A DNA stretch of 61,792 nt from Candidatus Woesearchaeota archaeon (lineage in GTDB: Archaea > Nanobdellota > Nanobdellia > Woesearchaeales > GW2011-AR9): NCBI GenBank assembly GCA_023265685.1, contig JAHFSP010000005.1:1-61792 (forward strand), given 5' to 3'. Positions 6,105-54,271 of the stretch are shown one piece after another; positions within the stretch are counted from its first letter, which is position 1, and every line of letters begins with the position of its first letter. The translations under genes and the position numbers were made by a program. The notes below the pieces were generated by a model. That model ran no database searches, had not been told where the DNA came from, and worked only from the letters and a program-made list of their open reading frames with translations.

Positions 6105-6710
6105 TTAGGGTATTCTCTTCAACGACTTAATCAAATAATTAGTTTCTTTCTCTTTTTTGCCACCAGACTCAATTTTACCCCTGTACTGCTCATCAACCTC
6201 ATTAACTCTTCCCTTACTCTCACGACGATTTTCAACATCTCCATGCTTCTCTTCCATTACAGTCGGCTTCTCTTTCAACCCTTCTTTGACAAACGTAATA
6301 GTATCTTTTGAAATTTGAGAAAATAATCTCTCCATCTCATCTTCAGGTAATTGTTTTCCTTCCCATTGTAATGCCAAACCATCATTCTCCATGCGTGGAA
6401 CAATTTCAATGCCAAAATGAGGAACACTTTGGTCAGCCCCCAAACCATTATTGATGATAATATTTGTACCATGACTCCCTAATCCTTCAAAGACCGCTGT
6501 ACTCATTTTTGTTGCCGTATTCACACATTTATTCAAAAGAGCATGTGGTACCAGCTCTAAAATAGTATGATGAACTCGCGGAAACACAACAAGATGCCCA
6601 GGGGTTATCGCCATATCTTTAACTGCTACGACAACATCATTATCTTCAAATAACACTTCTGCTCGACTTTCATGTTGAGCAATATCACAATAATCGCATT
6701 TAGTAGTCAT
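6105..6710 (-). CDS. HIT-family protein, degenerate HIT motif
   Basis: CDYC, PGHLVVFPRVH, NNG..ADQSVPHFGIEIVPR (canonical HxHxH replaced). Confidence 0.85.
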   Translation of the reverse strand: MTTKCDYCDIAQHESRAEVLFEDNDVVVAVKDMAITPGHLVVFPRVHHTILELVPHALLNKCVNTATKMSTAVFEGLGSHGTNIIINNGLGADQSVPHFGIEIVPRMENDGLALQWEGKQLPEDEMERLFSQISKDTITFVKEGLKEKPTVMEEKHGDVENRRESKGRVNEVDEQYRGKIESGGKKEKETNYLIKSLKRIP

Positions 6711-6722
6711 GGTTTCTCTCTT

Positions 6723-7625
6723 TTATTTAAACAAATTCGCAATATCATCTAACGACACATCTTGTTTTGATGTCTGTTTTTTCTGTAATGGCATCGGATC
6801 CTCTACCCCCTCTTCTGACTCATCTTCCACTTCTCTCTCTTTTGATGAGGTAGTACTTGGTATTGTTCCAAAACCTTTTTTCTTATTGCCCACACTTGAA
6901 GCTTTATCTGATTTCTTCACAGCTAATTTCTTCTTCACAACCCCTTTCCCCAACGCTCTTGCAACTTCTTCAGCATCAATTTCACGAAAGGAAGCATCAA
7001 CAGGTGAATGATCCACAGAATTATCCTTAAACGGTGAAACTCGCTCTCGAACGGCACCTATATCCACAATATGTACATCATTACCTTTTCTCTGCCCTTT
7101 TGCACCAGTTTCAAACGCTTTGGCAACCGCAGTAGCCAGAGCCGTACGAACATTTTCAATCATCGTCTTCTCCAACAACTTCTCACGAGCAGCAAGTAAG
7201 CCATCTCCCTCTTTACGTGCGATAACATGAATCAAAAAATGGGCAGAACGCTGTCCAGCAGCCATCCCATTAGCCACAAAAATGGTTGTACCCGTAACAC
7301 GTAGTGTTCGTAACAAAACCTGAGACAATAACTTACTCAATACAAAAAAATGATCCAAATCCGTTTGTTTAACTTGTGGCATGATCGCATAATGCTCTTT
7401 AGGGACCAATAATAAATGCCCTTTTGCCGCTGGATTAATATCAAGAATAACAATAGTACGCTCATCTTCATAGATTTTCTTTGCAGGAATTTTTCCCTGA
7501 ACAATCTGACAGAAAATACATTGTTGCTTTTGCAACGCAGCAAGCTGCTCTGGACTCATTGACTTAATTTTTTCTTCAAGTTCCTTACGCTGTTCAGCCG
7601 TTAATTGAGACACATCCATCATCAA
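6723..7625 (-). CDS. HIT-family protein with C-terminal low-complexity tail
   Basis: CIFCQI, LDINPAAKGHLLLVPKEH, AGQRSAHFLIHVI. Confidence 0.88.
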   Translation of the reverse strand: MMMDVSQLTAEQRKELEEKIKSMSPEQLAALQKQQCIFCQIVQGKIPAKKIYEDERTIVILDINPAAKGHLLLVPKEHYAIMPQVKQTDLDHFFVLSKLLSQVLLRTLRVTGTTIFVANGMAAGQRSAHFLIHVIARKEGDGLLAAREKLLEKTMIENVRTALATAVAKAFETGAKGQRKGNDVHIVDIGAVRERVSPFKDNSVDHSPVDASFREIDAEEVARALGKGVVKKKLAVKKSDKASSVGNKKKGFGTIPSTTSSKEREVEDESEEGVEDPMPLQKKQTSKQDVSLDDIANLFK

Positions 7626-7677: not shown

Positions 7678-8493
7678 CTATTCAAAAACGTCTTTCACAT
7701 TTCTAAAGTTCATTTTCACTAACGTTGTAGGATCTAGTCCTTTTTTCCTAACCATCTCCAACGCTTCATGTACATGGGTACTTCCCTTCGGCACAATAAA
7801 ACCCGCCCGACCTGAAATAAATCGTAACTGCTCAAGACCCGCAACTCGAGCAATAATTGATGCAGCAGCAACTTCAAGATACCGACTATCCGCCTTCTCC
7901 TCAATAACATCACCCACTAAACAACCAGGAAATTTATCGACAATATGAGTACCAGAACCCAACGCCACAGCGCATTCTTTATGTAACCTATTAAGCAGAA
8001 GTGTCTGATTAGTGTGAGCGTTATACTCCTCTGGGAGAATACTTCGTACCTCACATGCCGCAACCTCTTTGATTTTACGAGCCAGAGGAACCATCTCTTC
8101 ATCACGTAATTTCTTAGAATCATTCACGCCCATCTCCAACAACTTCGTACGCGCTGCTGCATCTGCTTTAACCGCAGCCACTACAATTCCCCCAAACGTA
8201 TCTCCTTTAAGCGTCTCATCGCTCCCAATAACCCATCCCGTTTCTTTTTCCAGTTCGAACACAGGTGCATCTTGAGTAAAACCCTGCTTAAGAAAAAGAG
8301 TACTAACCTTTGCAACCGCATCTTGTTTACCTTGTATCAACAATTTTCCAGAAGCGTATAAAACGCAACTAACACCCATCCCCTCAAGACGAGTGATTTC
8401 ATGTCCCGTTTTAAGAGGCTGTGAAACAAAACCATGCATACGCAGAAAAGCCAAACTTTTTGTATCAACGTGAATAAAAACAACCATATTCAT
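7678..8493 (-). CDS. rnhC: Ribonuclease HIII-like (N-terminal TBP-like domain plus RNase H)
   Basis: VLYASGKLLIQGK N-terminal signature; IGSDE.LKGD.FG, GVNDSKKL, KADSRYLEVAAASIIAR, PKGS. Confidence 0.85.
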   Translation of the reverse strand: MNMVVFIHVDTKSLAFLRMHGFVSQPLKTGHEITRLEGMGVSCVLYASGKLLIQGKQDAVAKVSTLFLKQGFTQDAPVFELEKETGWVIGSDETLKGDTFGGIVVAAVKADAAARTKLLEMGVNDSKKLRDEEMVPLARKIKEVAACEVRSILPEEYNAHTNQTLLLNRLHKECAVALGSGTHIVDKFPGCLVGDVIEEKADSRYLEVAAASIIARVAGLEQLRFISGRAGFIVPKGSTHVHEALEMVRKKGLDPTTLVKMNFRNVKDVFE

Positions 8494-8588
8494 CTCCCTC
8501 TTCTATATCGTCTTTGCTAAACATCAATACTAAAACAAATATCATTAATAAATATTCTTTCTAACCATACTTATTTTCATCATTTCCA

Positions 8589-9407
8589 TCACTTCCCTTC
8601 GAAATCCCCAAGACTTTTCTGTCTTTTTGCTTCTTCAATTCTCTTATAAGATTGCCAGCGTGTTCGAAAAAGACCCGGAAATTTGTCATGATGCGCAGCA
8701 AGAAATCGCTGGGTTTTTGGATCTGACGTATACCCTGAACCAAAATCAATACCAATCTCACGTTTAAGTCGATCAATCCAGCGATCACGCATGACCTTAG
8801 CCACAATCGATGCCGCACTAACAACCAGGTGATTGACATCTGCTTTATGTTCAACCACCAAAACAATCGAATCATGTAACGGAGGAGGTATTTTATCATG
8901 GAAATATTTCTTGTACGATTCAATATTCACACTTGGACAATCAATGATAGCTTTGTCTGGTGCAAGCTCGCTAACCATTCGTGAACTCGTATCTGCCTCC
9001 AGCCAGTTCAAATTTGATTCAGACAACGACAAGTCAATCGCATCAGGTTCGATAACCTCTACTCGAAAATCATGTACAACCTCTCGCAACCTTTCAAAAA
9101 GATCCTCGCGTACTTCAGAACTAAGTTGCTTGCTATCTTTAACCCCTAACCACGCCAGTTTTTGAATCTCCTCCTCTTTAAATGCCAGTGCTGCCATCAC
9201 CATCGGACCCAATACAGGACCACGACCAGCTTCATCAACACCTACAATGATTTGAGAACGTTGAGAAGACACAGGAGAAGAAGAAAGAGAAGACCCCTCC
9301 TTTTTTGTACGTGTTGAAGCTTTATCTTCAGACAATACCGGTGCTGATTTTATATTCTTCAACCTAGAAAAAACAGTCTCGGGAATTATAGCTTTGCGTA
9401 TAGCCAT
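8589..9407 (-). CDS. rnhB: Ribonuclease HII
   Basis: GVDEAGRGPVLGPMV, GVKDSK, EHKAD, AASIVAKV.RD, GSGYTSDP. Confidence 0.95.
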   Translation of the reverse strand: MAIRKAIIPETVFSRLKNIKSAPVLSEDKASTRTKKEGSSLSSSPVSSQRSQIIVGVDEAGRGPVLGPMVMAALAFKEEEIQKLAWLGVKDSKQLSSEVREDLFERLREVVHDFRVEVIEPDAIDLSLSESNLNWLEADTSSRMVSELAPDKAIIDCPSVNIESYKKYFHDKIPPPLHDSIVLVVEHKADVNHLVVSAASIVAKVMRDRWIDRLKREIGIDFGSGYTSDPKTQRFLAAHHDKFPGLFRTRWQSYKRIEEAKRQKSLGDFEGK

Positions 9408-18081: not shown

Positions 18082-19686
18082 TTACTGACAACCTGGATTC
18101 GAACCTGCACGTACAGGGTTCATAGAACATCCTGCAGCGCCACAATCATGTTGCAAAGTCGTTAGATGGAATTGATCTCCGCACGTTGTTGAAGTCTCAT
18201 TCAAAAATACCGATCCTTCGCAACGTAAATTAGTAGCACTTACATTCATCATACTTGTCGGCTCTGTAGGGATACCTCTCCAAATATCACAACAAGAAGG
18301 AGGTACGTTGCCATCTGGATTACATCCTAAAGAAGCTGAAAGCCAGGAATCACGACAGGTAATCGTATTTGCATTTAATGTATTAAATCCAGCACCAGTA
18401 CAAGTATAAATTGTAAGTTGGTTGTTTTGACAAGAGTTGGTAAACACGCCCAATTGAGTCTCAACAGAAGGCCTATTCCATTCACCAGTATACCGACAGA
18501 ACTGTGCAACACTAGGAACACACTGCCCACCAACTGCACTAAAACCTGCATTACAAGTCACTTCACATTTATGCGCATCTGAACATTGACTAACTGCCCA
18601 ATACGAAAGCGAATGATTAGTAGGAAAAAAATTCTGATCATCGCCTGGACACAATTGACTATTAGCTGGAATTGGACCTACTATATGTGGAAGAACATCA
18701 TTGCATTGACAATCACTTCCAATACCATCCCGATTATTATCACCTTGACCAGGATTAGCAACAGCAGGACAATTATCATTCATCCACGTTCGACCATCTC
18801 CATCAGTATCAGCAACAGCACAATCAGGGATAAAATCATTGTTGGCATCACCTGCAGGGTGAGCAACAGTAGTCAAAACAGCAACGGAACTTTGGAATTC
18901 TGAAATACTTACACGACCGTTACAATCAGCATCCATAAGCCGCATTGCGGAAGGATTATTGCCACATGCTGCCAAAATTGCAGCTCGACCATTCGCTAAA
19001 GGCAAGTTATTAAAAACTGCCATGGCACAAGCACCATCTCCATTTGCAGCACCTTCACTTCGATCAACACGACCATCGTGATTAAGATCCCATTCGATTG
19101 GAAGATCAATAAGAGGAGCAACACATTGTCCATTCTGTAAAATTAATCCAGCATTACACATATACTCACACTTATTTGCACCACACACAGCAACAGCAAC
19201 CCGATCAACATTCGCAACTAATTTTAGATCATCACCAGCACACAACATAGCATTAGCAGGAACCGCACCTTGGCAACGAGGAGCAAAACACACACCATTA
19301 GAACATAATGGCGTAGCAACAGGACATCGACTAAAAGTTTGAACTAATCGACAGGTAGCACCAGAACATGCGGGAGTTGTAGCACCAGCAGCCTGACAAG
19401 TATAGGTAAAGCGAGTATAAACATTTCCTGCCTGACAACCATGAAGATAACCATTCATACGACCACCAACAATTGCCGCAACACCAGTTCCTTGACCGTT
19501 ATCTGTACAACTTAATGAATTTTGGACAACGGGAGCAGGAAGAGGAAGTGTGACCGCATTACCAGCACCCACACCACCAGAATGACCACTAAGAAAAAAC
19601 GCACCAAGCGCAACTACCACAACAGCAATAAGAACATACATCAATTTTTGATGTTTTGAAATAGTACTCTTTTTAGACATAATCAT
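18082..19686 (-). CDS. Secreted/membrane-anchored Cys-rich protein with EF-hand/dockerin-like and thrombospondin type 3-like Ca-binding repeats
   Basis: N-terminal TM; DLNHDGRVD and DADCNGRVS; DTDGDG...DNCPAVANPGQ.D.NRDGIG.DC; two internal PAN..LC.GDD...KCE..CNAG.....GQCV repeats. GGTGA SD suggests a start at 19686 or 19680. Confidence 0.8.
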   Translation of the reverse strand: MIMSKKSTISKHQKLMYVLIAVVVVALGAFFLSGHSGGVGAGNAVTLPLPAPVVQNSLSCTDNGQGTGVAAIVGGRMNGYLHGCQAGNVYTRFTYTCQAAGATTPACSGATCRLVQTFSRCPVATPLCSNGVCFAPRCQGAVPANAMLCAGDDLKLVANVDRVAVAVCGANKCEYMCNAGLILQNGQCVAPLIDLPIEWDLNHDGRVDRSEGAANGDGACAMAVFNNLPLANGRAAILAACGNNPSAMRLMDADCNGRVSISEFQSSVAVLTTVAHPAGDANNDFIPDCAVADTDGDGRTWMNDNCPAVANPGQGDNNRDGIGSDCQCNDVLPHIVGPIPANSQLCPGDDQNFFPTNHSLSYWAVSQCSDAHKCEVTCNAGFSAVGGQCVPSVAQFCRYTGEWNRPSVETQLGVFTNSCQNNQLTIYTCTGAGFNTLNANTITCRDSWLSASLGCNPDGNVPPSCCDIWRGIPTEPTSMMNVSATNLRCEGSVFLNETSTTCGDQFHLTTLQHDCGAAGCSMNPVRAGSNPGCQ

Positions 19687-19790: not shown

Positions 19791-21356
19791 CTACCAAGTT
19801 ATCATTTTATGTGATTTCTTAAAATTATGATACGCCGGCCAACAATTATTTATTGCATATTTCTTCAATTTATCTCTAGCTGAATCTGAAAGTTCTTCTT
19901 CATGATGACCTTCATGACCACCATGTCCCCCCCCACTTCTTTTCACATTATAAAAATCACCAAATAATTTCTGCATCACACTTTTCTTTACTACCTTACC
20001 CACGTGATGTTCATCAGATGAATGTTTTTCATGTTTTTTACGTGCCATATCACGCGCATCACGTGCTTCTTGAAGATAAATTTGGAGATCATCACCTAAT
20101 GCTTGCATTGCTTCTTGAACAGACTTAGAAACATTTCCCATCAACATCATTGCTTCTTCTTCTTTCATTTTCTTATAATTCTCAACTTCTTTATTTGTCC
20201 AAACATACACCCGATAGTTCATCTCGTAACGCCCAATATGAACCGGACCACGTTGATACCCCTCTTGAACAACTTTAAGCTCAGGACGAGTCCGATAATT
20301 AAACGTAGCCAAAACACACGCATTACCTGCCCCCTCATTTTTACGAGCAAGTATCTCAATATCAAGCATACTTCCCTCAAACGAAGAAATAATATCCGGA
20401 GAACGCATGTTCTGATCTTTAAACGAAAGTCTCTCAACATGACGCAAATAAGGCTTTACCCATTCTAGATACATATTAATAATCTGATAATGTTGTTCAA
20501 GATAATTTAACATAAATCGTTTACGATTAGCATGCTCCAAATGAGTGCTCTTTTTCCATTGCATGAATTGCTGTAAATGGCGACCTAAAACACGCAACAC
20601 ATTATTGTTAAAATCTTTTCCCAAAGCCTTAACATGATGCTCCAACTCATCTGTTTCTTTAAATGGAGGAGAATCAAAGAATAAGTCCGGGAGAGTAATA
20701 AATTCTAATTCTCGCGCCATCCCATACACCGACGCCGCGCTCTTACCCCCACCTTGAACTAAGTCTACAAAAATTCCTTTTAGTGTAACCTCAGCACTCT
20801 TTCCACGTGCCGTAATCGGTTTCGCCAGCTCTTTGTCTGCTTCTTTATAATACTCTAAACGTTCATCAATGATCCTCAACTCCCGTACCATCTGAAACAA
20901 CTCTTTAATCATTTTCCCCGTCGTTGCCAAGAATTGGGATACTTTATCCTGCTGTGCCCCTAAACGCTGTTGCGTAACACCAAAAAAAGCTGAATTCTCT
21001 GCTGCAGCAAATGAATCCTCTATCTTTTCCACTATATGAAAATTCTGACGAAGTTCTTCTAAAACCCAGAAATATGGTTCTTCTAAACTAAGATCATAAA
21101 CCTCATATGTTAAACGATACGATTTAATGGGTTTAGGAAACCCAGTCTTAGAAAAATCACTCCCTACATTCTTTGTCGCAAGGACCTCTTTATTTTCCTC
21201 AACAGCAACTTCTTTACCATGATCATCCTTTTTAAAAAAACCATGTTTAACTAAAAGCTCAGCACGCGTCATCGGAACACGCGGGTTAGCCATTTTCTCT
21301 TCCGCCTTGTGTTCTCCCCTCTTCTCATGTCCCAAACCAGAATGAACAGTGCCCAT
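19791..21356 (-). CDS. Conserved-looking hypothetical protein, largely helical
   Basis: Long ORF with motif-like EEPYFW, AAENSAFFG, QQRLGAQQDKVSQFL, VRELRIIDERL.YY. Confidence 0.8.
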   Translation of the reverse strand: MGTVHSGLGHEKRGEHKAEEKMANPRVPMTRAELLVKHGFFKKDDHGKEVAVEENKEVLATKNVGSDFSKTGFPKPIKSYRLTYEVYDLSLEEPYFWVLEELRQNFHIVEKIEDSFAAAENSAFFGVTQQRLGAQQDKVSQFLATTGKMIKELFQMVRELRIIDERLEYYKEADKELAKPITARGKSAEVTLKGIFVDLVQGGGKSAASVYGMARELEFITLPDLFFDSPPFKETDELEHHVKALGKDFNNNVLRVLGRHLQQFMQWKKSTHLEHANRKRFMLNYLEQHYQIINMYLEWVKPYLRHVERLSFKDQNMRSPDIISSFEGSMLDIEILARKNEGAGNACVLATFNYRTRPELKVVQEGYQRGPVHIGRYEMNYRVYVWTNKEVENYKKMKEEEAMMLMGNVSKSVQEAMQALGDDLQIYLQEARDARDMARKKHEKHSSDEHHVGKVVKKSVMQKLFGDFYNVKRSGGGHGGHEGHHEEELSDSARDKLKKYAINNCWPAYHNFKKSHKMITW

Positions 21357-21488
21357 ATCGTACCAATTTCCTCTTTTTAGTAAATACAACATAACGCCGT
21401 TAATAAAATTTTCGTCAGCGAGTATCCTAAGAAACTAAAAAACAAGAATAAAAAACAGTGAAAAGAACAATAAGCAGCAGAAGAAATC

Positions 21489-22549: not shown

Positions 22550-23242
22550 CTACTCCTCTTTTGCACAAAAAAAGAACCAAAGCCCACCTTTCTCAACGAG
22601 CCGTACTTGATCAAAGTAGGCACCAAATAACCTAACCCATTCACCTTTGGTTTTTGTGGGAACTTCCTTTTGACGTTGCCATTCATCGACCGGCTTTCCA
22701 TTTAACACCGCAACAAACTTTCCTCCCTCCTTCACAACTCTCTTAGCCTCATTCAACAACCCAGTAATATTGTGCACATAATTGAGTAAAAACACTGCTG
22801 TAACACAATCAAATTCACTATCCTTAAACGGCAGCGTCTTTTCAACATCTCCCACAACTTTAACCCGACAATTCTCATTAAAACTAAGCATCTTCGCCGA
22901 AATATCAAAACCAACACCAGAAGTATAACTATACGCCCCACACCCTAAATCTAAAATATTCCCTGAACAAAATGAACCCAAAACAGACGAAATCATTCCT
23001 CGAACATCAGAAGAAATCTTTTGTCCCCATAAAAAAGCCTCTACATTCCAAAAAGCCACAATATTTTCTGGCCAACCTTTTGCCCAAGAAACAGAACCCG
23101 ACAAACGGCGCAGGTCTTCTTTTACATCAACCCCATACTGAAATTCAATTAATGTTTCGAGAAATTGCGCCTCAGCATCAAAACCTTTCTTTTCATACAT
23201 CCCTTTCTTTTCATGGACCCTATCACCCACCCCATCATCCAT
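22550..23242 (-). CDS. Class I SAM-dependent methyltransferase (type 11)
   Basis: ILDLGCGA, GFDIS.KML, LPFKDSEFD, EAKRVVKEGG. Confidence 0.88.
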   Translation of the reverse strand: MDDGVGDRVHEKKGMYEKKGFDAEAQFLETLIEFQYGVDVKEDLRRLSGSVSWAKGWPENIVAFWNVEAFLWGQKISSDVRGMISSVLGSFCSGNILDLGCGAYSYTSGVGFDISAKMLSFNENCRVKVVGDVEKTLPFKDSEFDCVTAVFLLNYVHNITGLLNEAKRVVKEGGKFVAVLNGKPVDEWQRQKEVPTKTKGEWVRLFGAYFDQVRLVEKGGLWFFFCAKEE

Positions 23243-23307
23243 TATAATCACCCTCTATTAACCATAAAAACTACGAAAGCTACATCACCCCACCAACCAT
23301 CAAAAAC

Positions 23308-24476: not shown

Positions 24477-24635
24477 GGACCCGTGGTCTAGTGGCTTACA
24501 TGAATTGATTCTTGAAAAAGAGACAGTTCATCTCCACACATGACGTTCGCCTGACTTGAAAAACTAATTTACCACAAGGAAAACGAGTTTCTCTCAGAGC
24601 GCGGAAGATCCCCGGTTCGAATCCGGGCGGGTCCA
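24477..24635 (+). tRNA. tRNA-Val(GAC) with two BHB introns (24497-24539 in D-loop; 24557-24599 at 37/38)
   Basis: Acceptor GGACCCG/CGGGTCC+A, T arm CCCGG-TTCGAAT-CCGGG, anticodon stem TTCGC/GCGGA. Removing both 43-nt BHB-bounded inserts gives a 73-nt cloverleaf. TATA-like sequence upstream. Confidence 0.88.
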
Positions 24636-24639
24636 CTCT

Positions 24640-24781
24640 TACTTCTTGTATCAAAACCAGGTCCCGGATTTGGAACGGGTCACGAACGCAGCGAAAGCGA
24701 AGTGACTCGACCCGGTTCGAATAGTTTCGCTCACGAAACGAACGAGAGCGAAGCTCGACTGTCCGGGCGGGTCCACTCTTA
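24640..24781 (+). repeat. tRNA-downstream element plus duplicated tRNA 3' end with T-loop insertion (copy 1)
   Basis: 24640-24710 matches 35155-35225 at 67/71 nt; 24711-24781 repeats CCCGGTTCGAA|TCCGGGCGGGTCCACTCTTA with a 40-nt hairpin insert (24722-24761). Confidence 0.9.
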
Positions 24782-24834
24782 TTTTAAAAGAAAGTCATCA
24801 ACATATATCTCTACTTACCATCCTCAACTGGCAT

Positions 24835-28204: not shown

Positions 28205-28915
28205 ATGAACCCACACCTAAACCCTACTCCCAACGAAACAACACTCCCCTCAACTCTCCCCCTTCCCCATTTTTTCACCCAATATTATAGATCATTTGCC
28301 TCCCTTACCCCCATCCAAAGCAAGGCAATCGCCGCAGGTCTCTTAGAATCTCAATCACTTCTCATCTGCGCCCCCACCGCATCAGGCAAAACTCTTATTG
28401 CCACCATGGCCCTAAGCAGAATTCTTGGTCAAGGCAAAGGCATCTACCTTGTCCCCCTCAAAGCACTTGCCAATGAAAAATATAAAGAATACAAGAAACT
28501 TCTTGAAAACACACCCTACAAAGTAACTATTGCGACCGGTGATATGGACGAAATTGATGCACGACTTGAAAAATATGATCTTCTCATCCTTACAACAGAA
28601 AAATTCGATGCTCTCATCCGCCACCGAATTCCCTGGCTCAACCAAGTCAAAGTCGTAGTCATAGACGAAATTCATCTTCTCCAAGACACCAGCCGAGGTC
28701 CAACCCTCGAAATCATCCTAACCCTTCTCAAAACCAGAATCAAACCCCAACTCATCGGACTCTCAGCAACTATTGGCAACCCCGCACAACTCGCCGACTG
28801 GTTAAGCACAACTCTCGTTCAAGACACCTGGCGACCTGTTGAGTTACATCAAGGAATAGACACCCCGCAAGGCAAGACTCAATTCTACAATAAAGACAAA
28901 TCAAAACGAAACTGA
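28205..28915 (+). CDS. Ski2/Hel308-like helicase, N-terminal RecA domain only
   Basis: LTPIQ Q-motif, APTASGKT, VPLKALANEK, TTEKFD, IDEIH, GLSAT, WRPVEL; the ORF stops before the second RecA domain. Confidence 0.88.
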   Translation: MNPHLNPTPNETTLPSTLPLPHFFTQYYRSFASLTPIQSKAIAAGLLESQSLLICAPTASGKTLIATMALSRILGQGKGIYLVPLKALANEKYKEYKKLLENTPYKVTIATGDMDEIDARLEKYDLLILTTEKFDALIRHRIPWLNQVKVVVIDEIHLLQDTSRGPTLEIILTLLKTRIKPQLIGLSATIGNPAQLADWLSTTLVQDTWRPVELHQGIDTPQGKTQFYNKDKSKRN

Positions 28916-31186: not shown

Positions 31187-32386
31187 TTACCCGAAATCTT
31201 TAATCACTTTAAGAACCAAATCGAATTCTCTACGAGCATACGTTTTCTTATATGAAGCAACCAGGCCACGCAAAATATCTTTATCAACAACCAACCCTTT
31301 ACGTACAAACCTCTCACGCAACCTACACAAATAATCCACAAATTGAGTTACATTTTGAGGACGTAAATCAGCGTGAGCTCGCTCAAAATCAATAAGAACT
31401 GGTACATACTTCACAACCCCCACAGAAGAAACTGTGTTTGAAATAATAATATGTTTAAACGGATGATGCATCTCCTCTTTGGTAATCCCTAATGTATCTA
31501 AAACAAAACACTGTTTTAACAAATCCATAACAACCCCCACAATCTCTTCAACGGAATGAGTCGTAATCCATTCCTCGAATAAAACTCCTTCAATAAACTC
31601 AAGAACCAGAAACCCCTCCCCTTTCACTAACAACCTAGCTCCAATTTTCTTCAAATTTACCTTCGACAAAATCTGCGCTTCACGAACACTACTTGCCATG
31701 GAAGCACTTCCCAACTGCTCAACTTTAATCGCAACCTTCCTCGTGCCTTTAAAACCACGATACACCCTCCCCCTCTTACCCTTAGCATGAAATGAAATAG
31801 ACCTAATACCCAGAGCCTCCAACTCAACAAGAAGAGAAGACCGAGTAATCTTATAGACATACAACTCCTCAAAAGAAATTTTCGTACTTCCGACAAGTTC
31901 CCAACCCAAAAGACGATCCCGCAAAATCTGATCAATCTTAACCTTATTAGTCAATGTTGAAAACAAAAATAAAACAATCCCCCCTCGATTAAGATGTGAA
32001 ACAACACTTTCAAAAAACCGTTCTGAAATCTCCCACCCATTTTTACCACCATATAATGCCAGATTATGAATACCCTCATCCTGCGGCAAATAAGGCGGAT
32101 TGAAAATAATTGTATCGAATTTTCCACGAACCTTTTCAAAAAGATCACTCTGAATAATTGTAAGCTTCGCAACTCTTTGCTTTCTTTTTTGAAAACACAA
32201 CTCTTCAATAACCGCAGGATTGATATCAACCGCTGTGACACTGCTCACTCGCTTATTTTTCAACGCCGTGAACGCCTGAATACCTGATCCCGTACCAACA
32301 TCAAGCACAGTACCAAAAGCATATTTTTCAACTACTTTAGCAAGAAGGATAGAATCCTCAGCGGGTTCGTAAATAGAATCGTGCAT
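31187..32386 (-). CDS. HemK2/Mtq2-type methyltransferase fused to a protein-kinase-like domain
   Basis: IYEPAEDS, LDVGTGSG, FNPPYLP; then AKGKRGRVY, VAIK, EAQIL, LEFIEG, HPFKHII, LIDFE. Confidence 0.88.
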   Translation of the reverse strand: MHDSIYEPAEDSILLAKVVEKYAFGTVLDVGTGSGIQAFTALKNKRVSSVTAVDINPAVIEELCFQKRKQRVAKLTIIQSDLFEKVRGKFDTIIFNPPYLPQDEGIHNLALYGGKNGWEISERFFESVVSHLNRGGIVLFLFSTLTNKVKIDQILRDRLLGWELVGSTKISFEELYVYKITRSSLLVELEALGIRSISFHAKGKRGRVYRGFKGTRKVAIKVEQLGSASMASSVREAQILSKVNLKKIGARLLVKGEGFLVLEFIEGVLFEEWITTHSVEEIVGVVMDLLKQCFVLDTLGITKEEMHHPFKHIIISNTVSSVGVVKYVPVLIDFERAHADLRPQNVTQFVDYLCRLRERFVRKGLVVDKDILRGLVASYKKTYARREFDLVLKVIKDFG

Positions 32387-32646
32387 ACACGCAAAACACC
32401 CCCTTCCTAAATAAATATTCCTAGATGAAATGTGATAGATATACCAATATACCCTCGTGAAGTTGATAGTGAAGTTTATAGCAAAGTACGATCTCAACAA
32501 TTCCAAAAGAAAATGTAAATCAAAACACCAGAATCAATTAACCACATTGAGCGAACTAAAAGCCTACCCAAAAATCACCCCATTAAAACTGCCACACCAC
32601 ATTTTTATTAAAAAAAAATCACATTGAAAACATCTATTCTTTCTCT

Positions 32647-35010: not shown

Positions 35011-35150
35011 GGGCCCGTGGTCTAGCGGTTACGGAAATGAACAATTCCGCCACAGATGACAGCGCCCTTACAAGAAGACATGAATGGTTCAAACCAAACA
35101 AATGCTTCTCTGAAAGGCGTTAGTCCCCGGTTCAAATCCGGGCGGGCCCA
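35011..35150 (+). tRNA. tRNA-Val(TAC) with two introns (35031-35055 in D-loop; 35073-35114 at 37/38)
   Basis: Acceptor GGGCCCG/CGGGCCC+A, anticodon arm GCGCC-CTTACAA-GGCGT after splicing, T arm CCCGG-TTCAAAT-CCGGG; 73 nt mature; relaxed BHB motifs. Confidence 0.9.
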
Positions 35151-35154
35151 TTTA

Positions 35155-35291
35155 TACTTCTTTTATCAAAACCAGATTACGGATTTGGAACGGGTCACGA
35201 ACGCAGCGAAAGCGAAGTGACTCGACCCGGTTCAAATACCTTGTGAGGGACCACAAACCCCTCGGGTTTGAGTGTCCGGGCGGGCCCATTT
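35155..35291 (+). repeat. tRNA-downstream element plus duplicated tRNA 3' end with T-loop insertion (copy 2)
   Basis: 35155-35225 nearly identical to 24640-24710; 35226-35291 repeats CCCGGTTCAAA|TCCGGGCGGGCCCATTT with a 38-nt insert (35237-35274). Confidence 0.9.
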
Positions 35292-35373
35292 TTATTTTCC
35301 CATTCATTTCTTATAGCCCATATCTTTCTCTAAAACCACACTTTTTATATACCAAAACTAATCTAAGATCACC

Positions 35374-50298: not shown

Positions 50299-52194
50299 TC
50301 ACTCAAAATACATCTTCTTCACATCTTTAACCTTCTGTACCCGACGAATCATATCCTTCAACTCTTCAATATCACGCGGCACAACGAGAAACGAACAGAC
50401 TGCGTGTCCTTCATTAAGCATCTTTGCTTTTGCCTCTTTAATCTCAAACCCAGCTCGTGCAATCGTGTGTAATAAATCAGCCAACAACCCACTCCTTTCC
50501 GTAGACTCTACAAAGAACCGAATTTTTTGATTAAATTCTTTTTTCCAATTAACATTTACCCAACGTTCTTCCTCTTTAAGAGCATCACGGCAATCTGGAC
50601 GATGAACCGACACGACGCGACGTTTATTCACAATTCCCACAATTTCCTGTCCCGGAAGAGCCACACAACAGCGCGCCAAGATACACGTAGCGTTTGGAAA
50701 CTGCGAAGATTCAACTAATACACCCTCTCCTTCTGCAATAAGCGGTTTAAGAGGACGAAAGTGCAACGGTGCAATTGTTTCATATTCCTTAAGCGCCTTA
50801 CGAATTTTTTGACGAGATTTTGCCGACGTGACAATCTTGAGCCAAGCCCGACGTGGACGCTGATTTTTCGCCGTTAATATTTCAATAACATCACCTGAAA
50901 GCAAAACACGTTTGAGCGGCACAAACTTTCCATTAACCCTTCCGCCAATAGTCGTGTTACCAATATGCTCATGAACTTGATACGCAAAATCAAGTAATGT
51001 AGCACCTGTAGGCAATTCTTTTACATCCCCTTTAGGCGTATAACAATGAATCTTATCTCCAAACAAATCAACTTTCACACTCTCCATGAAATTCTTTCCT
51101 TCATCAGAACGTTGAAGATCCAACACACTCTTAAGCCAGCCCACCTTTTTCTCAAATAACGGATCAGACCTACTCCCTTTATACTTCCAATGTGCCGCAA
51201 TTCCTTCTTCTGCAAACTCATTCATTTCAGGCGTACGAATCTGTACCTCAATAACATCCCCATTAGGCAACCGCAACCCCGTATGAATAGATTGATACAA
51301 ATTCATCTTTGGCGCAGAGATATAATCTTTAAGACGACCTTCAATAGGTTCGAAATTTTCGTGAAGTAACCCCAGCAACGCATAACAATCTTTTTCACCT
51401 TCAACTAAGACTCGAATACCTAACAGGTCATGTTGCTCATGAAGAGGCACTCGTCGTGTAATAATTTTACGATAAATACTATACACATTCTTAGGACGGC
51501 CCTTTATCGAAACCACCGTCACCTTTCCTAACGCAAGACGCTTAATCTGATCTATTGCCAAACTTATTTTACGTTCTCGTTGTTCACGCGACTCTTCAAG
51601 AAAATGTGAAATCTCCTGATACTTACGTTGATTCACAATACTAAACGCTAAATCTTCAAGTTGACTACGCATACGTTCCAGTGCCAGCCGTGATGCCAAC
51701 GGAGCATACACATCAAGAACCTCTTGTGCAATACGTTTCTGATCTTTCACACCTAACGCATGTATTGTTCGCAAATTATCCAACTTGCTCGCCAGTTTAA
51801 TGATGATAACCCGCACATCTTTAAGTGTCGTTAACAACAATTTACGCAACGCATCAGCTTCCAATTTTACATTCTTCGTCTTAATGGTTGCAAGATCATC
51901 AAGACCACGTAATAACGCAACAACTTCCTCGCCAAAAACAGTTTGAACCTCATGACTACCCGTAATCCGCAACACTCCTTGTAAAATCCCTGCCACAATC
52001 AATTCTGGTTGTGCGTTATTTTCTAGCAGAATTTCAGCCACACGACGATTATGATCAAACACACTATCTCCACCCAGACGCTTCACCACACCCAATAATC
52101 TCTCAGAAAGATCTAACGCCTGGGCAAACCGCCCGCAATGAAGCGCAGTATAGCCTGCTTTCTTACATCCAGACAAAAACAAAGAATGATCCAT
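50299..52194 (-). CDS. rel: Long RelA/SpoT homologue (degenerate HD, synthetase, TGS, Zn-finger, ACT)
   Basis: YAPLASRL, GRPKNVYSIYRK, DLLGIRV, RLKDYI..PK.N.YQSIHT, EVQIRT, AAHWKYK, TPKGDV..LP.GAT.LDFAY.VH, ARCC..LPG.EIVG, VHR.DC, R.GLLADL. Confidence 0.95.
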   Translation of the reverse strand: MDHSLFLSGCKKAGYTALHCGRFAQALDLSERLLGVVKRLGGDSVFDHNRRVAEILLENNAQPELIVAGILQGVLRITGSHEVQTVFGEEVVALLRGLDDLATIKTKNVKLEADALRKLLLTTLKDVRVIIIKLASKLDNLRTIHALGVKDQKRIAQEVLDVYAPLASRLALERMRSQLEDLAFSIVNQRKYQEISHFLEESREQRERKISLAIDQIKRLALGKVTVVSIKGRPKNVYSIYRKIITRRVPLHEQHDLLGIRVLVEGEKDCYALLGLLHENFEPIEGRLKDYISAPKMNLYQSIHTGLRLPNGDVIEVQIRTPEMNEFAEEGIAAHWKYKGSRSDPLFEKKVGWLKSVLDLQRSDEGKNFMESVKVDLFGDKIHCYTPKGDVKELPTGATLLDFAYQVHEHIGNTTIGGRVNGKFVPLKRVLLSGDVIEILTAKNQRPRRAWLKIVTSAKSRQKIRKALKEYETIAPLHFRPLKPLIAEGEGVLVESSQFPNATCILARCCVALPGQEIVGIVNKRRVVSVHRPDCRDALKEEERWVNVNWKKEFNQKIRFFVESTERSGLLADLLHTIARAGFEIKEAKAKMLNEGHAVCSFLVVPRDIEELKDMIRRVQKVKDVKKMYFE

Positions 52195-53611: not shown

Positions 53612-54271
53612 GTGGACACCTTCATCCAACTCAACAAAAAACATAGTAAAATTCCAAAACAGTTCCAAACAGATGATAACCGGTTCTCAGAATCATTTGT
53701 AGAATATATTCTCAAAAATTACACCAAAAAAACAGCGTTAATTATTGATCCTTTTGCAGGCCTAGGAACTACTCTTAAAGTATCAGAAAAGATGAATCAT
53801 ACGGCCTATGGTTTTGAAATAGACTATTCTCGCTACCAATACATCAAAAAACAACTCCAACATCCAAAAAATATCATCCATGACAGTGCTTTCAATCTAA
53901 ACAAACACCCTCTCCCCAAATTTGACCTTTGCCTAACCTCGCCGCCCTATATGCATAAAGATTATCATCGAAATCCTCTACGTAAAGAAACAAAAGGGGA
54001 TTATCAACAATATCTTGATGATCTTCTCAAAATCTACAGAAAAATAAAACCCCAGATGAAACAAAACTCGTACATCATTATTGAAGCTTCTAATCTTAAA
54101 GGAAAATATGTAACTACATTAGCTTGGGACATAACTCAAAAAATTTCTAAGATCTTCGATTTTGAAGGAGAAACTGTAATTCATTGGAAGAATCAGAAAG
54201 CCAAATCACAAAAAGGAACCTACGGGTACGGATACGACATCAGTTACTGTCTTGTTTTCAGAAAAAAATAA
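53612..54271 (+). CDS. Amino-type (N4/N6) methyltransferase, orphan
   Basis: IIDPFAGLGTT motif I followed by TSPPY motif IV; substrate (DNA or RNA) not determinable. Confidence 0.8.
   Translation: MDTFIQLNKKHSKIPKQFQTDDNRFSESFVEYILKNYTKKTALIIDPFAGLGTTLKVSEKMNHTAYGFEIDYSRYQYIKKQLQHPKNIIHDSAFNLNKHPLPKFDLCLTSPPYMHKDYHRNPLRKETKGDYQQYLDDLLKIYRKIKPQMKQNSYIIIEASNLKGKYVTTLAWDITQKISKIFDFEGETVIHWKNQKAKSQKGTYGYGYDISYCLVFRKK

Follow-up and report, generated by a model that had tools for sequence, protein, structure and literature searches.

A second 3' end with a T-loop BHB intron follows two archaeal tRNA-Val genes and is probably the displaced end of once three-intron genes

The 61.8-kb window, by which we mean the whole stretch of DNA analysed here, is a piece of archaeal chromosome of about 40% GC, and a family scan of its open reading frames (ORFs) showed that it encodes a family B DNA polymerase, LonB, S8e, ScpA and an S-layer protein. 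The window has two tRNA genes, hereafter locus 1 and locus 2, which lie on the + strand and are each specific for valine. ARAGORN found no tRNA gene in the unspliced window, and an Rfam search of the whole window gave no match at the gathering score and none at E<=0.5. Both genes escape these tools because of their D-loop introns, and a genome annotation would miss tRNA-Val. A custom T-arm/acceptor scan of the window returned seven rows, four of which are the two valine loci; the remaining three had AT-rich 'acceptors' and resembled chance matches. Motif matches at 18095 and 45410 were also set aside, as they lie within ordinary sequence.

The complete tRNA-Val(GAC) gene of locus 1 occupies 24477-24635 on the + strand, with exons at 24477-24496, 24540-24556 and 24600-24635. 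These are separated by a D-loop intron (24497-24539), whose BHB was read by hand, and an anticodon-loop intron (24557-24599), and splicing in silico yields a 73-nt product that ARAGORN calls as tRNA-Val(gac). The sole good BHB of the anticodon intron is CTGA/TCAG with bulges CT/T and AG/C, at 24556/24599, with a central helix (H) of 4/4 and an exon-side helix (h) of 5 bp. Splicing here (window positions 24550-24605) leaves U37 in a loop reading CUGACUC, which is unusual. Position 37 of tRNA is normally a purine, and hand reading of two related genes described below (L061 and L100) gave G37. At locus 2, the complete tRNA-Val(UAC) gene spans 35011-35150 on the + strand, with a D-loop intron at 35031-35055 and an anticodon-loop intron at 35073-35114; splicing at 37/38 gives a 73-nt tRNA-Val(tac). 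The central helix of the latter intron, read by hand, is just 2/4, and the endonuclease of this organism must therefore accept relaxed motifs. No splicing endonuclease gene was found among the 47 window ORFs scanned. Comparison of the mature tRNAs shows 19 differences in 73 positions, and in both complete genes the T-loop is free of an intron.

Downstream of each complete gene, the same order of elements is found: a 6-nt trailer, a 69-nt module, a second copy of tRNA positions 49-59, an insert, a second copy of positions 60-73 and a T-rich run, all on the + strand. At locus 1, the trailer CTCTTA (24636-24641) and the module (24642-24710) are followed by the copy of positions 49-59 (CCCGGTTCGAA, 24711-24721), an insert of 40 nt (24722-24761) and the copy of positions 60-73 (TCCGGGCGGGTCCA, 24762-24775), and then by CTCTTATTTT, which provides the sole run of four T residues found downstream of the gene. 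Taken together, 24711-24775 repeats positions 49-73 of tRNA-Val(GAC), with the insert separating 59 from 60. At locus 2, the trailer TTTATA (35151-35156) and the module (35157-35225, identical to that of locus 1 at 65 of 69 positions) precede a second 3' end at 35226-35288, which comprises positions 49-59 (35226-35236), an insert of 38 nt (35237-35274) and positions 60-73 (35275-35288), and then TTTTTATTTT. The 49-59 copies are direct repeats whose starts lie exactly 100 nt apart at both loci.

Upstream and downstream exon pieces show no difference in 25 nt at either locus, and this holds for positions 57 and 70 too, which differ between the loci and follow the local gene. The trailer is repeated after the downstream copy, with 6/6 matches at locus 1 (24776-24781) and 5/6 at locus 2, and in the 20 positions made up by the upstream 60-73 and the trailer, the loci differ at 5. 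Since positions 57 and 70 and the trailer are locus-specific, the upstream copy appears to have been made from the local gene. The strong T-runs sit after the downstream copy. At locus 1, no T-run longer than two follows the upstream copy, and read-through into the second end is therefore likely there; a T4 run in the module of locus 2 may stop some transcripts. An assembly artefact from mixed alleles could not have yielded the same 69-nt module at two loci and was rejected.

The insertion between the halves of the T-loop can thus be described as a 100-nt unit, made up of an intron-free local 60-73, the 6-nt trailer, the 69-nt module and the 49-59 copy. It spans 24622-24721 and 35137-35236 and is carried by both tRNA genes of the window. 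The original prediction had recognised the displaced end but overlooked this insertion and the conserved module within it. Conservation of the module between the loci includes an uninterrupted block of 54 invariant columns (24665-24718 at locus 1), which extends over the first 8 nt of the second T-arm, and its 39-nt core has two matches in the window against none expected from 100 shuffles. Beyond these two + strand copies adjoining the complete tRNAs, neither a further copy nor a complement was found in the 61.8-kb window. The module includes a stretch antisense to the T-arm, 17 nt long at locus 1 (24663-24679) and 15 nt at locus 2 (35180-35194), whose reverse complement aligned to the locus 2 pre-tRNA with a score above all of 200 shuffles. 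A hairpin with an 8-bp stem (24676-24709 at locus 1, 35191-35224 at locus 2) resembles the 3' two-thirds of the locus 1 T-loop intron, at a score reached by none of 200 shuffles. The GC content of the module is 52% and 46% at the two loci and that of the hairpin 62%, in a genome of 40%. A near-identical module with T-arm antisense at both loci is unusual and is the stranger part of this arrangement, and it hints at a directed rather than a random step.

We considered whether the module belongs to a known class of RNA. A C/D box guide RNA acting on the T-arm was rejected, since the boxes (TGATGA, CTGA) are absent from 24636-24790 and from 35151-35303. In the module hairpin, inspection by eye revealed neither a K-turn nor an H/ACA layout. 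The module is also not the decayed 5' half of a second tRNA, as it has no sense similarity to either pre-tRNA (p=0.96, with scores at the shuffle mean). The best Rfam match around locus 1, to permuted tmRNA, was weak (20.3 bits, E=0.034, where the cut-off is 47) and at chance level, and this candidate was discarded because the acceptor-like pairing GGTCCCG/CGGGTCC is missing at locus 2.

Both inserts in the second copy have the layout of a T-loop intron. At locus 1 it reads CCCGG-TTCG-(AA/T)-AGTTTCGCTC...GAGCGAAGCT-CGAC-(TG/T)-CCGGG, in which the BHB scan finds an exon-side helix h of 5 bp (the T-stem CCCGG/CCGGG), a central helix H of 3/4 (TTCG/CGAC, with one U.C mismatch), an intron-side helix h' of 10 bp and two 3-nt bulges, AA/T and TG/T. 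None of 20,000 shuffles of the insert reached H>=3 with h'>=10. If each bulge is cut after its second nucleotide, the resulting tRNA is the same as that obtained with the upstream copy, and ARAGORN calls it as tRNA-Val(GAC) of 73 nt. The original prediction had placed a T-loop (59/60) BHB intron in 24711-24775; the sequence is as it described, and the scan agrees. Its claim that cleavage at AA/T and TG/T regenerates the T-arm exactly is equally borne out by the spliced product. Of its helix claims, the 3/4 central helix, the two 3-nt bulges and the length of 10 bp stand, and only the label 'outer' is wrong, this helix being the intron-side one.

At locus 2, the central helix is 4/4 (TTCA/TGAG, with one G.U), h is 5 bp and the 3' bulge is again TGT, and direct reading shows a splicing product identical to the upstream copy. 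Here h' is 1 bp in strict register and 4 bp when one extra U on the 3' strand is skipped; shuffles reached the motif 25 times in 20,000 in the relaxed form and 127 times in 20,000 in the strict register. Locus 1 has a strict BHB and locus 2 a relaxed one. G57 of locus 1 faces a C and A57 of locus 2 faces a U, and apart from this the inserts are unrelated in sequence. That the pairing in 35237-35274 follows the G/A57 difference, with TTCA/TGAG and the TGT bulge, had been correctly anticipated. RNA folding, which had been put forward as a check, gave less: the energy of 24711-24775 is unremarkable (z=-1.72, with 11 of 200 shuffles folding as well), and the locus 2 copy (z=+0.16, 107 of 200 shuffles) has a minimum free energy (MFE) structure without the BHB. 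A lenient BHB scan of the two loci, each about 300 nt, returned 88 candidates at locus 1 and 70 at locus 2. The case draws its weight not from folding energy but from the length of h', the precise location and the faithful regeneration of the exons.

To judge from its sequence, the displaced intron is plausible as an EndA substrate that is cleaved, because its geometry is at least as good as that of the gene's own introns and because the irregularity at locus 2 recurs in 5 of 14 intact archaeal tRNAs. The available text of one report describes broad specificity for several types of archaeal splicing endonuclease, and frequent tRNA gene disruption in DPANN lineages (PMC5829648).

These intact tRNAs come from a scan of genome contigs for a T-arm pattern with a 15-45-nt loop insert, which gave 102 loci, 15 of them with archaeal titles; the window's own genome was not in the set. 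As the pattern itself demanded a T-loop insert, the scan shows that a three-intron state exists at related loci and says nothing on its frequency or on that of intron-free T-loops in relatives. Removal of the insert at 59/60 left an intact tRNA gene at 14 archaeal loci, 12 of which ARAGORN finds directly, while L027 and L061 are called once the D-loop intron is removed as well. The controls were the 88 loci that are not tRNAs with a T-loop insert, namely the bacterial records and L003. All 14 intact tRNAs have H>=3, and h'>=3 is seen in 8 of them in strict and 12 in relaxed register, while 3 and 6 of the 88 controls pass the strict and the relaxed BHB test, respectively. The one-extra-nucleotide irregularity of locus 2 is the feature shared with five of the 14.

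Seven of the 14 are tRNA-Val genes (L005, L016, L026, L027, L047, L061 and L100). A 59/60 intron is therefore present in intact tRNA-Val of relatives, which had been named as a check, and these same-site inserts support the earlier suggestion of a displaced ancestral 3' end of a three-intron tRNA. L061 (Val-GAC) and L027 (Val-UAC) have three introns, one in the D-loop (after GGCT and before ATGAC), one in the anticodon loop and one in the T-loop, and the D-loop and anticodon sites are those of the window genes. When the 2-kb flanks of the 14 loci were compared with the window, 4 of the 14 window proteins queried had a match. The flanks of L061 encode homologues of window ORFs 19791-21392 (58% over 305 aa) and 22550-23251 (46%), those of L027 a homologue of ORF 31187-32506 (42% over 415 aa), and L005 (Val-UAC) adjoins a ScpA homologue (41%). 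Gene order and orientation are kept in part only, the orientation of the tRNA relative to shared neighbours differs in L061 and L005, and these syntenic relatives are distant, at 41-58% protein identity.

Two further observations concern the related loci themselves. In L042, from another archaeal MAG, a tRNA with anticodon-loop and T-loop introns has a 30-nt copy of its anticodon intron, 97% identical (1955-1984, 2062-2091), right after its 3' end (...CCCACCA); such intron-trailer repeats were seen in none of 12 other archaeal loci examined. In L026 (1946-2200 and beyond), a tRNA-Val(CAC) with a T-loop intron is followed by tRNA-like 5' starts (GGGTCCGTGGTCTAG..., GCCCCTGTAGTCTAG...), with intact T-arms at +282 and +649, and the T-loop insert is found in the first gene of this cluster only.

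With moderate confidence, we interpret 24711-24775 and 35226-35288 as the displaced original 3' ends (positions 49-73) of tRNA-Val genes that formerly contained three introns. The downstream copy is best taken for the original end because L061 and L027 are three-intron tRNA-Val genes lying beside homologues of the window's neighbouring genes. Old, gene-specific introns also fit, since the base opposite position 57 tracks each gene while the inserts are otherwise unrelated. Read in this direction of change, the ancestral gene would have had introns in the D-loop, the anticodon loop and the T-loop at 59/60, and the 100-nt segment would have come to occupy the 59/60 site of both tRNA-Val genes in this lineage. 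The upstream, intron-free copy would now complete the tRNA during transcription, in keeping with the predicted fold of a transcript that ends at this copy, which forms a cloverleaf by itself. The module and the old 3' end would probably be transcribed by read-through as an extended 3' trailer, at locus 1 at any rate. The displaced end would have retained its own T-loop BHB intron and the T-rich terminator of the gene; the old intron would form its BHB within the trailer and could be cut and rejoined by endonuclease and ligase, the product presumably being redundant. With old intron-bearing and new intron-free ends 100 nt apart in one gene, twice, the arrangement looks like an intermediate in the loss of a T-loop intron; if the short repeats recombined, either a two-intron gene or the ancestral one with three introns would result. 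The gain and loss of archaeal tRNA introns and the fragmentation of tRNA genes are a long-standing question for which real intermediates are few, the Caldiarchaeum tRNA-Thr locus among them.

Several points count against a displaced end, among them the distance of the syntenic relatives and a predicted preference of full-length transcripts for the downstream copy. The downstream exons show no decay, and a relic must therefore be young, homogenised or selected. The 54 invariant nucleotides of the module, despite 19 differences in 73 between the tRNAs, argue for function, recent spread or gene conversion. Finally, the upstream 60-73 and trailer are locus-specific and yet intron-free, for which no standard mechanism accounts. 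Candidate origins are an RNA-templated copy of a spliced precursor, template switching during replication, or an older arrangement kept under gene conversion or selection; template switching would fit because of the inverted T-arm and the intron-like piece in the module.

These points bear on a possible, though not a likely, alternative, namely that the second 3' end is functional: the antisense in the module would act as a switch or mask, either copy would complete the tRNA, and a backup or regulated route would be under selection. The absence of copy differences at both loci, despite two differences between the loci, would then reflect constraint, as would the spacing of exactly 100 nt, found twice, the 54 invariant nucleotides, and the 17- and 15-nt antisense with its T-arm similarity beyond all of 200 shuffles. 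The predicted folds of full-length transcripts point the same way, as the downstream copy is the preferred partner of the 5' acceptor strand. The predicted advantage is 8.0 kcal/mol at locus 1, because the module antisense can occupy the upstream T-arm there, and 6.5 kcal/mol at locus 2; in addition, no terminator lies between the copies at locus 1. However, a tRNA completed with the downstream copy would contain 100 surplus nt between positions 48 and 49, and no BHB was found to excise them. The module is missing from all 14 related loci, and its acceptor-like pairing GGTCCCG occurs at locus 1 only. Both routes also lead to the same tRNA, which offers no gain in product; for the same reason, the proposal that the fragment serves as an alternative 3' exon loses its force, as the choice of either end would be without consequence.

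An attachment-site scar, which is compatible with the displaced-end explanation, seems rather unlikely. Here, an integrase element with an intron-free attP would have recombined within positions 49-59 and displaced the intron-bearing end, leaving the 69 nt as its remnant; the observed layout would result if an integrase recombined an attP lacking the intron with an attB that has it. A direct repeat of positions 49-73 plus 6 nt flanks the inserted DNA at both loci, att sites of which one has an intron and the other lacks it have been proposed to recombine (in the available text of PMC3293823), and introns have been discussed as obstacles to integration (likewise in PMC4090602). Against this, only 69 nt lie between the repeats, and no integrase, transposase, reverse transcriptase or recombinase family was detected among the 47 window ORFs scanned, 12 of which matched no family at all. 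The 'element-side' 60-73 and trailer are specific to each locus, yet the 69 nt are nearly identical, and the same remnant could occur at both loci only through a pair of identical deletions or a miniature element. The module was found in none of the 102 fetched loci nor in phage and plasmid collections; the four matches in the phage collection cover the 30-nt T-arm only.

A more speculative and quite unlikely possibility is that the 100-nt unit is the trace of a small mobile or circularisable unit without genes, which would locate tRNA-Val through its 15-17-nt T-arm antisense and insert at 59/60 while copying the host's spliced 3' end by an RNA-templated or template-switching route. In the predicted circular fold, the antisense pairs with both ends of the unit and aligns them at 59/60. 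The circular fold is not more stable than the linear one, and its z-scores are -3.05 (3 of 300 shuffles) at locus 1 and -1.55 (23 of 300) at locus 2. If such a unit did exist, an intron bypass or a step of gene fragmentation would have been caught midway.

It is very unlikely that each locus has one long T-loop intron, in which A59 of the upstream copy is spliced to T60 of the downstream copy, removing 140 nt at locus 1 or 138 nt at locus 2; the upstream 60-73, the module and the second 49-59 would then lie within the intron as a pseudo-exon. The identical upstream 49-57 could pair equally well to give the exon-side half of the BHB (h=5, H=3/4 or 4/4, 3' bulge TGT), and the MFE structure of the full locus 2 transcript has exactly such a pairing. 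In register, however, neither locus offers any intron-side helix (h'=0), the second copy makes a far better hairpin locally, and the upstream copy is a complete end that forms first. We give next to no credence to the second end as the 3' piece of a split, trans-spliced tRNA whose leader, the module, pairs with the trailer of a separate 5' gene: the fragment does have an intact T-arm, acceptor strand and terminator, and the module is GC-rich for this genome, but no complement of the module exists elsewhere in the 61.8-kb window, the fragment begins at position 49 and matches the tRNA directly upstream, itself complete, and reading of the module found no convincing archaeal TATA-like box. The trans-splicing partner proposed in the original prediction likewise lacks support, as the window has no complementary leader.

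Positions of introns in archaeal tRNAs have reportedly been listed by Marck and Grosjean in 2003 and by Sugahara in 2008. The intron in the displaced end resembles known non-canonical BHB introns in its two 3-nt bulges 4 bp apart, its cleavage after the second bulge nucleotide, its occurrence in strict (hBHBh') and relaxed forms, and its 59/60 site, which is used in 14 intact archaeal tRNAs. Unlike them, it lies in a redundant, displaced 3' end, whereas the working copy has lost it. An intron-like sequence at more than one place, as with the module hairpin and the locus 1 T-loop intron or the trailer of L042, is also reminiscent of the intron transposition among tRNA genes that Fujishima is said to have described for Thermoproteales in 2010; here, in contrast, the copy is not within the frame of the mature tRNA and lacks its own BHB. 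Among the systems covered in the available text of published work, archaeal tRNAs have non-canonical BHB introns, including T-loop ones, in genes with up to three introns (PMC4033280, PMC5829648), and split, tri-split and permuted tRNA genes occur in Nanoarchaeum, Caldivirga and Thermofilum (PMC4033280). The latter share with our loci pieces that are bounded at intron-like positions and a dependence on BHB processing but, as far as that text describes them, differ from them, since we find no separate 5' partner within the window, no leader-trailer BHB and no permuted order. [quoted passage not shown] As that report's available text describes it, a 1.8-kb insert with a recombinase gene parts a 5' fragment from the gene in Caldiarchaeum, whereas here 69 gene-less nucleotides part a 3' fragment; both tRNA-Val isoacceptor genes share the insert, and the duplicated part is locus-specific. 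The locus is a variant of known non-canonical BHB introns and of tRNA fragments derived from rearrangement, and not a new kind of element.

Elsewhere in the window, the family scan of ORFs brought up several minor observations. The ORF at 50299-52194 (- strand) encodes a full RelA/SpoT-type protein with HD, RelA_SpoT, TGS and ACT domains in this archaeal context; the family is mostly bacterial. A 236-aa ORF at 28205-28915 (+ strand) has only the N-terminal domain of a DEAD/helicase, and a 219-aa ORF at 53612-54271 (+ strand) aligns with just the final third of the N6_N4 DNA methylase profile; each may be a truncated or split gene. Finally, 6105-7625 and 7678-9407 (both - strand) hold neighbouring pairs of paralogues, namely two HIT-domain proteins and two RNase HII genes.
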